This document shows, piece after piece, positions 35,807 to 51,079 of a stretch of DNA of 64,000 bases. Position numbers and translations under genes: made by a program. The stretch's first letter is position 1; every line of letters begins with the position of its first letter. This DNA comes from an uncultured Bacteroidales bacterium (GTDB taxonomy: Bacteria; Bacteroidota; Bacteroidia; Bacteroidales; Bacteroidaceae). The stretch is from contig CAWBPN010000001.1 in NCBI GenBank assembly GCA_963790715.1, positions 11,902 through 75,901 on the forward strand. Direction: 5' to 3'. The notes below the pieces were generated by a model that did no database searches, was not told the origin of the DNA, and saw only the letters and a program-made list of their open reading frames with translations.

Positions 35807-36021
35807 TTGTACTTTTTTCTTTGTGTGAACAAAGCAAAAGCTACGAAAAAAGAAAATCACCGACTGTACCTCGCAGGCTATTACGAACTTGCTCTTCGCT
35901 AAAATAAATAACGCGCACTTCGTGCTTGAACGGGGATTTATTTTTTAACGCTCATCACACGTTCTCCATTTCACGCCGGCTCGCTAATGTCGGAATTTAA
36001 CTCAATACCTTCCGACTGATG
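35807..36021 (-). repeat. R repeat copy 1 (full, about 215 bp), immediately upstream of the CPS promoter
   Basis: On the plus strand it starts TTGTACTTTTTTCTTTGTGTGAACAAAG and ends CTCAATACCTTCCGACTGATG. Contains three hairpins (see findings). Confidence 0.9.
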
Positions 36022-36903
36022 TTTTTGCTCTTGATTCATAGTGCATTAAAAAAAATCGTAAACTTCGAAATTTTCTTTTATATCCATACTGTTCGGATTC
36101 AATAAGAAATCAAATATCCGATTATGTTATTCCATTTTCATCACGATAAGGTTTATGTCGTCTTTTGTAACTATAATCTTTTTGAATGAATCACCAATTT
36201 TCATCATGATTTCTTTTCTTGCTCTACTTTCTCAATAGTACTCATTTAAACGGGAATTGAATGTAATAACGGTTAAAGACCTTTATTGCTACAAAATTTA
36301 CTTCAATAGGCTTTTGTCGCCTTGTGTCCATTGCGATTACTTCTTTTATTTCAACTATGCTAATCAACTTAATAGTCCCTGTATAGTAGTTCGTTGGACT
36401 ATATGTTCTCCAATGTGATTTATTCTGTTGTCTGACTTCAGGCGGGCTTGCTTTCAACTCTGATATCGGAAAAGAATATTTTCCAGGGGTCTTATGAAAT
36501 TTTTACCTTTTACATCGTTCTGACAGCGCGATTAACAAAAATTATTCTGTCAGGTAGTCATATATTATTTAATAGTTATATTGTCTATGCTACTTTTACC
36601 TGTATTTTTGAGACTCATTCCATTGCGTAACTCTGTATTTTCTATATCATCAAGAGCTATGTTCTATAAGATGGTCTTCTTTACTCCATCTGTTACAAGA
36701 AAATTATATAAAGTGAAATACAAATAAGAATTTCCTGAAGTCTCATGCCTGGAACATAACATTGACCATGCCGTTACAACGGCGTTTTATCAGCTTGTCG
36801 AGATTCAATTGTCTTTTTATTATCAATTCCTATGTCCAAATTTTGTGACATGTCCACCTTTTTGGGAACAAATATACTCAATTTTAATAATGAGTTATGG
36901 CAT

Positions 36904-37118
36904 TTGTACTTTTTTCTTTGTGTGAACAAAGCAAAAGCTACGAAAAAAGAAAATCACCGACTGTACCTCGCAGGCTATTACGAACTTGCTCTTCGCTAAA
37001 ATAAATAACGCGCACTTTGCGCTTAAACGGGGATTTATTTTTTAACGCTCATCACACGTTCTCCATTTCACGCCGGCTCGCTAATGTCGGAATTTAACTC
37101 AACACCTTCCGACTGGTA
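36904..37118 (-). repeat. R repeat copy 2 (full)
   Basis: Collinear with copy 1. An extra partial duplicate of its right arm lies at 37143-37170. A TATATTTG motif at 36869-36876 faces leftward into degenerate DNA. Confidence 0.9.
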
Positions 37119-37311
37119 TTATTGCTATTGATTTTTGTTTACACGCTAATGTCGGACTAACTCAAAAGCCCATGTGTTCAGATTTATCGCTATGTTCATA
37201 AGTTCATGAACAAATATCAATTTTTGAACAAGAAGTTTGGTAGTTACAAAAATGTTCACTATCTTTACAGTGTTCATAAATTCATGAACAAGCATTTAAA
37301 AATGAACAGAT

Positions 37312-38295
37312 ATGGTAAATGAAAGGAGATTATCTTTAGAAGCCGCTGCGAATTTAAAGAGTTTAACGCGACGTGATGACATCACCGTGAAACCTGCCAG
37401 TATGGGAAATCACGATGTGGACATCAACATTGGTGACGTAAAGATGTCTGGCGAAATCAAAAGCTTTGTAACTAAGGCTAACTTTAACCAGGTGATTCTC
37501 CAATTGCAAAAGATAAAAAAGGATGGCTCTGCACCTGTACTATTGATTGCTGGTTATATTTCCCCTCAACAAATGATGAAATTTGTAGAGGAAGGATTTA
37601 ATGTATTGGACAATGCCGGCAACTGCTATATCAACATTCCACCATTATATATATATATTACAGGGCAGAAACAGGACAAACCGAAAGAGGCTGAAACGAA
37701 AGTGTTCAGTGAATCTGCGATAAAACTTATTTTCTATTTCCTGCTAGACAAGGCAAATATAGGAAAAACATATAGAAAAATTGCAGAAGAAACTGGCTAC
37801 TCTCTTGGAACCATTAAAAATGTTATTGAGGATATGACCCGACACCATCATATTATAAAAACTCCTAAAGGAAGAGTTCTGATGGACTGGAGAAAATTAC
37901 TTAATGAATGGCAAGTGACATATAACCAGTCTTTAAAACCAAAATTGTTCTTGAAGAAAATGAGACTTGGAGGTCCTGAACTTAGACGAAATTGGCAGGA
38001 TATAAAATTACCAAATAGCTCTTATTGGGGTGGCGAAAGCGGTGCCAATCTTATTGATGGATACCTAACTCCAGAGATACTAACGATCTACACGGATGGA
38101 GATAGTGTTGATTTGATTAGGACGGCAAAGATGTTACCCTCTTCTGATGGCGACATTCTTGTTTACAAGAAATTCTGGACAGGAGAAGCGGATAGTAAAA
38201 TGGTCCCGAAAATATTAACCTATGCAGATTTAATGGGGACGACAGACAGCCGTTGTCTTGAAGCTGCTAAAAGAATCATAGATGATGAAAAATAG
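37312..38295 (+). CDS. wHTH protein, putative AbiEi-like antitoxin/regulator
   Basis: 327 aa with a central HTH-like ..TYRKIAEETGYSLGTIKNVIEDM.. Overlaps a downstream nucleotidyltransferase fragment by 14 nt. Palindromic operators lie upstream. Confidence 0.4.
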   Translation: MVNERRLSLEAAANLKSLTRRDDITVKPASMGNHDVDINIGDVKMSGEIKSFVTKANFNQVILQLQKIKKDGSAPVLLIAGYISPQQMMKFVEEGFNVLDNAGNCYINIPPLYIYITGQKQDKPKEAETKVFSESAIKLIFYFLLDKANIGKTYRKIAEETGYSLGTIKNVIEDMTRHHHIIKTPKGRVLMDWRKLLNEWQVTYNQSLKPKLFLKKMRLGGPELRRNWQDIKLPNSSYWGGESGANLIDGYLTPEILTIYTDGDSVDLIRTAKMLPSSDGDILVYKKFWTGEADSKMVPKILTYADLMGTTDSRCLEAAKRIIDDEK

Positions 38296-48906: not shown

Positions 48907-48926
48907 CTCAATACCTTCCGACTGAT
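48907..48926 (-). repeat. R repeat copy 10 (right-arm stub)
   Basis: CTCAATACCTTCCGACTGATG plus the same downstream TTTTTaCTCTTGATTT as copy 1. Confidence 0.7.
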
Positions 48927-49089
48927 GTTTTTACTCTTGATTTTTTTGTTTACACACTAATACAATACGGCAACATGCCACCTTGGTGAAATAATCTGAT
49001 AAGCTGTTTCATGTGGATACACAATTATTCTAATACTTTTATTTACTTTCTACAAACGAACAAAATATTGAATGGTTGAGCAAAAAACT

Positions 49090-50145
49090 CTATACATCAT
49101 CTCTAAATTTGGCTTCTAATTCCAAGATCCTTCCTTTTAATTGTTCAAATGTTAGAGGATTCTCGTTATATATGAAAGACTCTATCATCGCATTATAATC
49201 TTCCTTGAATAATTGCTCTATCTCTCCTATAGGCCATATTTTAATCAGCTCTCGTTTGTCGGATTCGTAATCTACAGAGCTAATATGATAGAATTTCTTA
49301 CGATGCTCAATAATATTTTTGTAAAGTTCCGCGTCATTTATAGCTGCATCCGAGTATGTGTCCATGAGCCTCTCTATATCATATAGATGGCGACTCATTC
49401 TTTCGCTTCTGGGTACTTTCTTCTGATATTCCTCATTTAATAATAATGCCTTTTCAAGAAAAGTTCTTATAGGAAGAACGGTTGGAATGATACATTGTGT
49501 CGCATCATCCACCTCATTAAAAGAGTCGTAAATTAAAGACGTTAAGTTTCTATTCTCATAAGGTTCGTCCATAGACATGCAGCTAATCTCTATCTTAACT
49601 TTAGGCTGTATATATTCATTCGTATCACCTAAGATACTTGGATAGACAATATTTATAACTACAGGATCACGGTCTGTATCGATAGGAACTTCAATACCAT
49701 CTTTAATAAAAGTTGTTACATTTTCAACCTGGAAATCCTTTACTCCCAAGTTCGTTAGCTGTGCATTTAGCTCTGGAGATAATTGTGCAAAGATAATTTC
49801 TCTTGATGCTTTACGTAAATTTTTAAGCTGATTATTATTATCACAGCTGGCAAAAGAATATAGTTCCTTCATTTCCTCTGTTTGGGTAAACCAGCTTCTG
49901 CTTAAAGATATATCTATATCTTCACTAAATCTTTGGAGATTAATGTCCTTCCATTTCCCTTTAGAGAGACTCGTACCTCCTTTGAAAAGTAAGAAGGACG
50001 AGAAAGACGTGCTAAAAAGTGCTTTAAGGGTAATTGTTACCCACCAGTCCTTTTCTATAGCTAACTCTTCTATATTTGTATTTTCTCCTGTCTTCTGTAT
50101 AATAGCGATACGCTCTTCTACAGTCTTATCTTGCCATATACTCAT
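49090..50145 (-). CDS. AbiEii/AbiGii-family nucleotidyltransferase toxin (type IV TA / abortive infection)
   Basis: 351 aa with ..LFKGGTSLSKG.. and ..RFSEDIDISL.. motifs. Confidence 0.85.
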   Translation of the reverse strand: MSIWQDKTVEERIAIIQKTGENTNIEELAIEKDWWVTITLKALFSTSFSSFLLFKGGTSLSKGKWKDINLQRFSEDIDISLSRSWFTQTEEMKELYSFASCDNNNQLKNLRKASREIIFAQLSPELNAQLTNLGVKDFQVENVTTFIKDGIEVPIDTDRDPVVINIVYPSILGDTNEYIQPKVKIEISCMSMDEPYENRNLTSLIYDSFNEVDDATQCIIPTVLPIRTFLEKALLLNEEYQKKVPRSERMSRHLYDIERLMDTYSDAAINDAELYKNIIEHRKKFYHISSVDYESDKRELIKIWPIGEIEQLFKEDYNAMIESFIYNENPLTFEQLKGRILELEAKFRDDV

Positions 50146-50737
50146 ACTTCTCTATGATTGGTTTAATATATTTACGAATCCAAACTGGTGCTACGCTTAA
50201 ATCTTCTTTTATTTGTTGTCTTTCTGCTGAATTTGAGACTATTTCCTCTATTCTATCAATGTCTTTAGGGGCAATATTGGATTTTCCTTTTGCTTTTAAT
50301 GCCAGTACAAGTAATGGCATTAATTGGCTCTTATATGAATATGAACTGGGAGCTCTATGTTTTAACCTTATTTTTTTATTTCCTATATTTATAATTCTTG
50401 GCGAGCCATTTGTAAGATAAACTGCTTTCATCGGGATTTGTGTTGAAAAGCCAAGAGCATTTAGGGCATATTCTCCAGTAGGTAATATCTCAGCATTTTC
50501 ATGTTCAGCTATTAGTCTTACTATTTTTTCCGCGGAAGGATATACGTTGCCATATTGTGTTATAATCGGTTTATAGTATATACCTTTTGCAAGACGTTCA
50601 AGTACCTCAAAGTCCTTTAATATAGATAATATCTTGCTAACGTATTCATTATCGAACTCCGCAAAATCATTAACAAAGAAGACCGTTCCCGGTTTTGCTT
50701 CGTCTATTCGTTGTTTTATTTGTTCTTGAATGGTCAT
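50126..50737 (-). CDS. AbiEi-family antitoxin (DUF6088-like wHTH)
   Basis: 203 aa with ..GTVFFVNDFAEFDNEYVSKILSILKDFEVLERLAKGIYYKP.. Overlaps the toxin gene by 20 nt. A TAACTTTG motif at 50756-50763 is duplicated at 50893-50900. Confidence 0.8.
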   Translation of the reverse strand: MTIQEQIKQRIDEAKPGTVFFVNDFAEFDNEYVSKILSILKDFEVLERLAKGIYYKPIITQYGNVYPSAEKIVRLIAEHENAEILPTGEYALNALGFSTQIPMKAVYLTNGSPRIINIGNKKIRLKHRAPSSYSYKSQLMPLLVLALKAKGKSNIAPKDIDRIEEIVSNSAERQQIKEDLSVAPVWIRKYIKPIIEKYEYMAR

Positions 50738-51079
50738 ATTAACATATTTTAGTCGGTAACTTTTGCAAAGTTATGGAAATTATCTATTATTTCCAACTTT
50801 AAACTAATATATTTTAGAATAATGGGGATAGGATTTTATAAAGCAGGTAGTTAGTCTATTTTATATTAACATATTTTAGTCGGCAACTCTTGCAAAGTTA
50901 TGGAAAAACACAATTTATGACCACCTAATTAAAAATAACAATGATAGATTTAAGCCTGCTTTGCTTTTTTTGTTTGTCATCTTTTTTGTTTTGTGCGGAT
51001 TTTTCCCGTTTCGGATTTTTCCGCGTTTAAAATTTTATGATGACAAAGGTAATGTCGGGATTCAACTATTTACTTTTCT

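Follow-up and report, generated by a model that had tools for sequence, protein, structure and literature searches.

Structured intergenic repeats such as ERIC/IRU and REP/BIME of enterobacteria and the Correia repeats of Neisseria can stop or stabilise transcripts and provide points for recombination. They occur in tens to hundreds of copies dispersed over the chromosome, and some carry inverted ends and TA duplications. PATEs, which derive from IS200/IS605, lack inverted ends and target duplications, form strand-specific hairpins and show precise presence or absence. In minimal mobile elements and similar hotspots, cassettes are exchanged by homologous recombination between conserved flanks. 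The core site of integrons has the consensus GTTRRRY. To our knowledge, integron-like gene capture in Bacteroidales has so far been known only from recombinase-associated rAID arrays. The rAID-1 arrays of Bacteroidales have a XerD-like tyrosine recombinase at the head, co-oriented genes of <41% GC with immunity-gene content, and repetitive conserved intergenic motifs, and were called integron-like by their authors (Ross et al., bioRxiv 10.1101/471110; PMC12247911). Here we describe a repeat, designated R, in a stretch of 64,000 nucleotides from an uncultured Bacteroidales bacterium (GenBank assembly GCA_963790715.1, contig CAWBPN010000001.1, positions 11,902 to 75,901), referred to below as the window. 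A first-pass annotation had noticed that R partitions an array of toxin-antitoxin and defence modules upstream of a capsular polysaccharide (CPS) operon.

We tentatively interpreted R as a lineage-specific terminator or insulator repeat that doubles as portable homology for the shuffling of toxin-antitoxin modules, and gave this reading slightly less than an even chance. Placed between separately promoted toxin-antitoxin or Abi modules and before the promoter of upxY, R would act as a transcriptional stop or insulator, preventing read-through from one module into the following one or into the capsule operon. The many co-oriented copies, 94–98% identical, could at the same time serve as portable homology. 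Recombination between two of them, within one chromosome or with incoming DNA of another strain, would delete, duplicate or swap whole modules, and the outcome would be a cassette-like array that varies between strains.

The R unit consisted of a 195-nt core and a variable preceding segment of 20–45 nt. The core starts with TT(A/G)AATTCCGAC and ends with AAAGAAAAAAGTACAA; the preceding segment is A-rich, more variable, and ends with CAGTCGGAAGGTATTGAG. Repeat detection, alignment, an nhmmer profile and a covariance model were concordant in recovering the repeat, and an invariant 22-mer of R occurred eight times in the window (0.00 expected from shuffles). Five full copies, all on the minus strand, were found: copy 1 at 35807–36021 (core 35807–36001 plus a short preceding segment; 246 bits with the covariance model), copy 2 at 36904–37118, copy 4 at 39447–39661, copy 6 at 40954–41168 and copy 8 at 44553–44767. 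Identity among them was 94–98.5% over the core.

Two further minus-strand copies were internally deleted. Copy 3 (38610–38702) had lost the tip and inner arms of the fold described below (core about 32–123), and copy 5 (40143–40287) had lost core about 44–105 with the outer stem retained. The deletion in copy 5 recurred identically in the related contigs L003, L007 and L019. A diverged copy comprising the core only, R9inv, lies in the opposite orientation (45049–45238, plus strand), 2 nt past the stop codon of the open reading frame (ORF) ORF108, and was 71–74% identical to the full copies. With the ends of copies 6 and 8 adjusted to 41168 and 44767, the full, deleted and inverted copies were as first annotated, and neither the covariance model nor the nhmmer profile found any more in the 64-kb window.

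Four shorter sequences had also been listed as stubs of R, and two of these were upheld. The one at 37142–37163 (minus strand) reads as the ~22 initial nucleotides of the core (GAGTTAGTCCGACATTAGCGTG), after which comes the segment that precedes copy 2; this arrangement was also seen upstream of R in L010 and L013. The other, at 43842–43874 (minus strand), is a 3'-terminal stub with the A/T palindrome only, located 6 nt past the muramidase stop codon and followed by a promoter block; it is conserved in L010, L013, L020 and L021. On the other hand, the sequence at 48907–48951 (minus strand) proved to be a preceding segment with no truncated core, at exactly the site where L011 has a full R core. 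That at 51050–51072 (minus strand) was not a stub of R; it is ancestral intergenic sequence between the AAA gene and DUF3987 with an internal deletion, in which TTGAATCCCGACATTA is fused to a -7 box, and it is homologous to the first bases of R. Thus, the two sequences before DUF3987 share ancestry with local intergenic DNA and are not decayed cores.

The position of R relative to the modules was less uniform than had been described. Copy 4 starts immediately past the stop codon of a 35-aa peptide ORF, but closeness to a module stop codon did not extend to every copy: what precedes copy 2 is a divergent AbiEi promoter, and copies 6 and 8 come after a gene fragment and the inverted copy, respectively. 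Copy 8 precedes the muramidase start codon by 50 nt, in which there is no -7 box.

The host of R is known only from wastewater and wetland metagenomes. UpxY/UpxZ, DUF3987 and the promoter motif point to a Bacteroidales host, of which no isolate genome was found. The 22-mer matched 16 contigs in JGI metagenomes, 11 of which contained genuine R copies, and protein-anchored look-ups added L003, L020/L021 (wastewater, ENA PRJEB7850), L025, L031 and L033. All of the ~35 copies, from 14 independent metagenome contigs, were within the same kind of array. The recovered copies thus lay at module boundaries, in agreement with the earlier proposal, and not in a scatter like that of a miniature inverted-repeat transposable element (MITE). 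In the paralogous HU-ORF-muramidase-DUF3987 loci of the same samples (L022–24, L026–30 and L034–35), the covariance model detected no R.

In these relatives the same repeat stood between different modules, which indicated that array content varies between strains, as the first-pass annotation had left to be checked. The module types between R copies included HigBA, other AbiE pairs, MNT-HEPN and small membrane peptides. L010 has upxY, a deleted R, a different AbiEi/AbiEii pair, R, an antitoxin, a stub, muramidase, R and an inverted R. In L014 and L019 a HigBA pair, inverted in L019, is flanked by two R copies. An MNT/peptide flank is joined through a single R to the upxY promoter in L006, and L011 has an MNT fragment, R and DUF3987 beside ordinary core genes. 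JGI contig 3300075153 has the order YefM-YoeB-MNT-HEPN-DUF6722-peptide-upxY before the same capsule genes, L025 the order muramidase, R, peptide, R, operon, and L020 no AbiE module between the AAA gene and DUF3987. Many of the contigs end inside R, which suggested that assemblies break there and that metagenome-assembled genomes (MAGs) probably lose such regions. In L025 (730–960 and 1360–1475), tandem units of ~75 nt (GCCCGATTTTGCGAAGCAAAGAGGAA...TTTCCGGCA), two or three per R, take the place of the short preceding segment.

Searches elsewhere gave no relative of R. Rfam 15 gave no match for the window at the gathering score, nor for 35–52 kb at E <= 1, consistent with the earlier remark that R resembles no described family. 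No match was obtained by blastn in PLSDB plasmids or GenBank phages, or with three R motifs in IMG/VR. The exact 22-mer, searched in one genome per GTDB species, gave only two chance hits (one Bacilli MAG and one Spirochaetia MAG); L025 has GGTATC where the 22-mer requires SGTAGC, so that such scans undercount relatives and absence from the GTDB representatives proves no rarity. Exact-protein look-ups of the muramidase, YoeB, UpxY and UpxZ had no match in a collection from which the genome of the window is absent, no tRNA or tmRNA fragment was found as an attachment site, and literature searches yielded nothing relevant on a described repeat at upxY, DUF3987 or toxin-antitoxin loci in Bacteroidales.

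Read in the gene sense, R folds into an imperfect hairpin of ~135 nt with a terminator-like tip, followed by an unpaired, near-invariant U-rich linker and then a 12-bp A/T palindrome. The tip of the long hairpin is GCGCGAAGCGCGC, followed by GUUAUUUAUUUUAG and preceded by AAAAAAUAAAU, and is thus a GC hairpin between an A-tract and a U-tract. It had the GC-rich stem, the U-tract after and the A-tract before that are expected of an intrinsic terminator. Terminators (GCGCGAAGCGCGC plus GUUAUUUAUU) were predicted on the minus strand in four copies (2, 4, 6 and 8), and the plus-strand prediction fell in the same position. The tip therefore looks like a bidirectional intrinsic terminator, at which transcription would stop. 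The terminator-like hairpin of the first-pass annotation was accordingly confirmed at the tip of the long stem, but not at the 3' end of R, where the hairpin is the A/T palindrome and has no U-tract.

Covariation was analysed in 21 copies (20 distinct rows). The consensus fold contained 46 pairs with 99.5% of cells paired, as compared with only 33–50% in slid controls. Pairs changed on both sides numbered 8, versus 2.2 in shuffles, and none of 500 shuffles reached the observed value. When two copies from the distant relative L025, of which the muramidase DNA is 81% identical, were added, there were 10 compensatory pairs, and one pair appeared in four pair types. G-U pairs were common and A-C pairs almost absent in the sense-strand fold. 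Folding of the sense strand was favoured over that of its complement by ~1–21 kcal/mol, and in most copies by >10 kcal/mol; the z-score of the sense strand was -2.96. Judged from these sequence patterns, the fold appears to be selected on one strand, and RNA and single-stranded DNA fit the data equally. The segment UUCCGAC has two competing partners, GUCGGAA upstream and GUCGGUGA downstream.

Coding capacity was considered and rejected. An open frame (KINPRSSAKRALFILVK...) spans R without a start codon, and the variation tracks base pairs, not codons. The plus-strand ORFs over R have their starts in non-conserved flanks.

The promoters around R were examined for the Bacteroides-type -7 box, TAnnTTTG. 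Boxes were found 28–31 nt past copies 1, 2, 4, 5 and 6 and past the stub at 43842. The box after copy 1 (TACATTTG at 35777) placed this copy directly upstream of the upxY promoter, as had been noted, and that after copy 2 is TATATTTG at 36876. Copies 4, 5 and 6 and the stub are followed by a promoter block on the minus strand (39406–39446, 40102–40142, 40913–40953 and 43801–43841), with the -7 box TATCTTTG at 39416, 40112, 40923 and 43811, respectively. The earlier suggestion that R brings its own promoter was borne out only in that the block follows in four cases; the block itself belongs to paralogous operons of the YefM/YoeB type. Copy 8 and several copies in relatives are not followed by it, and in L025 its distance from R is 85–100 nt. 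The 3' end of R was therefore rejected as a fixed upstream promoter element, since the spacing of 28–31 nt in the window is not kept in L025 and the box is sometimes absent. In the muramidase leader, a canonical TTTG-N-TATTTTTG promoter match occurs at 44503–44535 on the plus strand. It would read antisense through copy 8, toward the sense orientation of R9inv, and may be a chance match given the A/T-rich sequence.

Comparison of the flanks indicated how the arrays have changed. Copies 6 and 8 have a common 5' flank and the entire R in common, and their similarity stops exactly at the 3' end of R. In copies 4 and 6 the similarity covers the 3' flank and, within R, the 3'-most 112 nt as far as the tip (repeat families D1 and D4). 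The L006 copy combines the copy 4 flank with a sequence that resembles copy 1 from about position 45 on, so that the switch falls within the first ~45 nt. These end points differ from one pair of copies to another, which fits homologous recombination better than a fixed crossover site. We infer RecA-type rather than site-specific recombination from this pattern. No breakpoint was found in the spacer of the 3' palindrome.

Repeats other than R were also involved. A fragment of the C-terminal half of ORF108 (41340–41495, minus strand) and a 3' fragment of DUF3987 (43151–43246, minus strand) bracket the inverted HipBA module; the latter is the last 32 codons, fused to the end of a YoeB-like ORF. 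From the sequence, this arrangement points to a duplicated DUF3987-HU-ORF108 block that had its middle replaced, so that larger blocks would have been duplicated and overwritten. The AbiEi/AbiEii module is flanked not by R but by direct repeats of ~135 nt that contain the DUF3987 promoter and first codons (48686–48819 and 50940–51054; families D12 and D14). With different local repeats as its boundaries, module insertion there needs no R as such. Array changes thus fit general homologous recombination through any available repeats, among which R is the most abundant. Long imperfect palindromes provoke breaks and slippage, and this would fit the two internal-deletion variants of R.

Changes of R alone were seen in two pairs of sites. 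In one, sequence comparison revealed a duplicate of the ORF108 3' half and spacer precisely without R9inv (41170–41495, minus strand), an empty site: the duplicated ORF108 3' end (41331–41494) reads AAATAG|CTTTTATCC, and the filled counterpart AAATAG[R]CCTTTATCC. In the other, L011 contains a complete core at the very point where the window reads GGTATTGAG|CACCCTCTC (at 48907). Both pairs have the same 5' edge, G|TT(A/G)AAT or its R9 counterpart. Terminal inverted repeats were not detected in R (best end-to-end local score 5, versus 6.2 +/- 1.2 in shuffles), and neither was a target-site duplication: no k-mer was common at consistent offsets in 12 copies, and none was present in the filled/empty pairs. 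L020 has no R in its intergenic region upstream of DUF3987, and that region (TTGAATTCCCCATTAGCAAAGG ... GGTTCGAAAGCATTACC) is homologous to the initial ~22 nt of the core (TTGAATTCCGACATTAGCGAGC) and to GTCGGAAGGTATT just before it. This suggested that R evolved locally and is not an imported recombination site.

Several of these results are not what a terminator repeat would lead one to expect. The linker and palindrome are nearly invariant, with 3 of 52 columns variable in 19 copies. The outer helices, maintained by compensatory changes, join sequence upstream of the tip to sequence past its U-tract. Efficient termination at the tip would prevent these helices from forming in RNA, and a plain terminator would appear to have no need of them. 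R9inv was 97–100% identical across strains whose neighbouring genes were 71–94% identical, which seems more constraint than an insulator should need. The two precise R-only pairs look like mobility or site-specific excision, not unequal crossing-over. Together with the dual partners of UUCCGAC, the R-only pairs, the compensated outer helices and the conservation of R9inv keep three other explanations alive. One of these is that R is a small non-autonomous mobile element, with its enzyme encoded elsewhere in the genome and the array as a preferred landing zone; the route might be that of an IS200/IS605-type 'peel and paste' relic or of another HUH or DEDD system. The two filled/empty pairs with a common 5' edge would be accounted for in this way, the lack of terminal inverted repeats and of a consistent target duplication is as in such systems, and strand-specific folding is expected of an element handled as single-stranded DNA. 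We nevertheless considered a mobile element rather unlikely, with all copies recovered from the window and the 14 contigs in one locus type and none in the paralogous loci. Moreover, the two end hairpins are dissimilar, the bases left of the insertion differ (TTGAG and AAAGG), and the homology of the first ~22 nt to resident intergenic DNA allows the 'insertion' edges to be redrawn. The only nearby transposase is that of IS66, whose ends R does not match. IS66 was thus rejected as a mobiliser of R, which had no similarity to the rest of the window, the IS66 ends included. A functional RNA of ~190 nt was judged to be about as improbable as the mobile element. As a 3' untranslated region, as a leader or from its own promoter, it might lend stability to adjacent mRNAs or take part in their processing, or it might act in trans as a regulator of the toxin-antitoxin modules or the capsule operon. 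Such a role would agree with the compensatory changes and frequent G-U pairs, confined to the sense strand, and its z-score of -2.96, with the near-invariant unpaired stretches and very strong conservation of R9inv, and with the competing GUCGGAA and GUCGGUGA partners for UUCCGAC. Copy 8 would form a leader: a possible promoter precedes it at 45003, the muramidase start codon follows, and a -7 box is lacking downstream of the copy. However, no canonical Bacteroides promoter lies directly upstream of R, R9inv would have to be transcribed antisense to its neighbours, and no Rfam relative appeared even at E <= 1. G-T pairs are equally tolerated in folded single-stranded DNA, so that the strand specificity is no proof of RNA.

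The remaining explanation, to which we assigned a lower probability than to either of these, is a cassette system that uses R for recombination. R would be a functional analogue of integron attC sites or of the repeats in rAID-1 arrays, and a site-specific recombinase, encoded at an unlinked place, would recognise its folded single strand. The repeat does stand at nearly every junction, module content is strain-variable, and the strand-specific imperfect hairpin has bulged bases. The recurrent break at G|TTAAAT matches the GTTRRRY core-site consensus, and the 12-bp inverted repeat with its 6-nt spacer at the 3' end may be seen as having the shape of a tyrosine-recombinase core site. An integrase is what such a system requires, and none was found in the window ORFs scanned or in related contigs. 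By Pfam, no tyrosine or serine recombinase was detected in 40 window ORFs (mostly >=100 aa) from the array and its flanks, outside the two CPS operons, and the sole transposase was IS66 TnpC; this is in accord with the earlier statement that the window contains no integrase or other recombinase. The GTTRRRY-like motif is at the outer 5' foot of the hairpin without an RYYYAAC partner, the reverse of the attC layout. The variable end points of similarity, the absence of a breakpoint in the palindrome spacer, the self-promoted modules of mixed orientation and the AbiE module flanked by another repeat also argue against it. Equally doubtful, in our estimate, is the wider proposal that R, as an element of ~195 nt folded on one strand, is the junction site of an undescribed Bacteroidales cassette system served by a recombinase or HUH-type enzyme encoded elsewhere, for which the conserved DUF3987 PrimPol-helicase/HU block at the array head would be a candidate source. 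With the same low likelihood, such a system would capture, excise and reshuffle self-promoted toxin-antitoxin and defence modules before capsule operons, in parallel to integrons and rAID-1 but with unrelated sequence and architecture. The terminator or insulator repeat with portable homology remains the reading that we tentatively prefer.

The modules themselves were as first annotated, according to Pfam, NCBIfam and PADLOC. The NusG-like upxY (35043–35582, minus strand; Pfam) is the first gene of the capsule operon. Upstream of it is an AbiEi-type antitoxin/regulator gene (37312–38295, plus strand), inverted relative to the array. Domain scans identified two YoeB pairs on the minus strand: pair 1 (38767–39374) with the antitoxin at 39027–39374 and the toxin at 38767–39039, and pair 2 (40348–40881) with the antitoxin at 40621–40881 and the toxin at 40348–40620. 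Between them (39665–40099, minus strand) are an MNT nucleotidyltransferase gene (39776–40099) and the 35-aa hydrophobic peptide ORF (39665–39769). A HipB-like helix-turn-helix gene and a HipA kinase gene, also from domain scans, occupy 41566–43125 on the plus strand, again inverted. They are followed on the minus strand by the third pair (43148–43785), which consists of an antitoxin (43465–43785) and the YoeB-like toxin (43148–43477) that ends in the DUF3987 3' fragment. The N-acetylmuramidase gene (43880–44503, minus strand) is conserved in all related contigs. The conserved block at the array head (45240–48753, minus strand) comprises the DUF3987/PrimPol-like gene (46330–48753), an HU-HIG gene (45588–46232) and ORF108 (45240–45566). 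The AbiEi(DUF6088)/AbiEii pair (49090–50737, minus strand) lies in an insertion at about 49004–51056 that is absent in L020. An AAA/DUF4143 ATPase gene also belongs to the gene content of the window.

The MNT gene of the window has lost its HEPN partner; in JGI contig 3300075153 the partner is present and overlaps MNT. The stop codon of the 35-aa peptide ORF (MALIYFLSLITFLAIVGIIWVAIQLHKKDIKAAKK) abuts copy 4, and the peptide is conserved in L006 and L025; in JGI 3300075153 it is the '35 aa' gene that precedes upxY. Its shape is that of a type I toxin or a small membrane protein.

Other repeats were noted in the same region. Within the HU-HIG gene (45616–45791), 24-nt tandem repeats (families D9 and D11) encode a Gly/Ser/Thr-rich tail, the length of which varies between strains. 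Before the inverted AbiEi gene (37193–37308) are two palindromes of the TGTTCATAAGTTCATGAACA type (family D20), which look like autoregulatory operator sites. The AAA/DUF4143 gene is preceded by three 33-nt tandem repeats (52378–52463; family D19), and the gene for the DUF6088 antitoxin by two 44-nt repeats (50736–50906; family D17). An IS66 element that looks complete (tnpA, tnpB and tnpC; 55008–57642, plus strand) is situated between the array and a second capsule locus that ends at 57659. Downstream of the capsule operon (12775–13606, plus strand) is an uncharacterised 213-aa ORF with a weak PADLOC hit only. Its relatives in L008, L018 and L020 (70% DNA identity) adjoin R copies or the muramidase stub.

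If R is only an insulator and a source of homology, it would be a neat local example of a familiar process, in which a terminator-bearing repeat makes an intergenic region a shuffling hotspot for toxin-antitoxin and Abi modules beside a phase-regulated capsule operon. It would also explain the assembly breaks and the loss of such regions from MAGs. If, on the other hand, the constraints on the outer helices, on the linker and palindrome and on R9inv, and the R-only indels, reflect recognition by an enzyme or function as RNA, R would be more than a local example. It would then be a recombination site of a new class or a novel structured RNA, with a link to Bacteroidales defence islands.

Among known elements, the multicopy small RNAs FopS and GibS of Bacteroides resemble R in being multicopy non-coding elements of Bacteroides/Bacteroidales. 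FopS is 65–70 nt long, has a single-stranded seed and a terminator, and is in Rfam (PMC11697453). R is 195 nt long, has no Rfam match and a different architecture, and was rejected as a member of this group. It was also rejected as a MITE, given that it has no terminal inverted repeats and no target duplication. As to dispersal, all copies recovered are in one array type, in scans that miss diverged copies. With PATEs, R shares the absence of inverted ends and target duplication, the strand-specific hairpins and the precise presence or absence. An IS200/IS605 PATE was nevertheless not accepted, as the end hairpins are unrelated, the left flanks (TTGAG and AAAGG) offer no common target, and the recovered copies are not dispersed. 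Neither TnpA nor TnpB was found in the 64 kb or in related contigs.

The likeness to integron arrays, in particular the Vibrio superintegrons with attC sites of the VCR type, consists of a junction repeat, many toxin-antitoxin modules, a one-strand imperfect palindrome and strain variation. No IntI, attI or Pc was found here. In attC, RYYYAAC...GTTRRRY occupies the feet of a palindrome of 55–140 nt and crossover takes place in the 3' GTT. R is 195–215 nt long without the R''/R' layout, and its GTTAAAT/GTTGAAT is at the 5' foot with GTT outermost. Integron cassettes are mostly promoterless and co-oriented, whereas here -7 boxes precede the modules and AbiEi and HipBA are inverted. Unlike in integrons, similarity ends at varying places, and R alone may be present or absent. 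As a mechanism, the integron analogy of the first-pass annotation was thus not sustained: the attC layout is lacking, the modules have their own promoters and some are inverted, the end points vary, R comes and goes alone, and its origin seems local. The rAID-1 arrays, compared by description only, belong to the same order and also consist of short accessory genes with conserved repetitive intergenic motifs, a resemblance in form. Here, no recombinase was found in the window ORFs scanned, the head is DUF3987-HU-ORF108, the modules are toxin-antitoxin and Abi modules, and the array heads a capsule operon.

Minimal mobile elements likewise gain and lose modules through flanking homology without a dedicated recombinase. 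Their homology is in the flanking core genes, whereas here a dedicated repeat is reiterated within the array. With ERIC, BIME and Correia, R has in common an imperfect palindrome of 100–200 nt in transcribed intergenic DNA, internal-deletion variants, the lack of an enzyme of its own, and terminator and promoter effects, which for R are predicted. Being itself an intergenic imperfect palindrome with internal-deletion variants, it has the features of an ERIC/BIME-like repeat. It differs in its confinement, as far as seen, to one locus type, inside which it is reiterated, in the lack of inverted ends, and in having a strongly conserved linker and palindrome in addition. Among known kinds, repeats of the ERIC/BIME/Correia type and recombination hotspots driven by flanking homology come closest to R.

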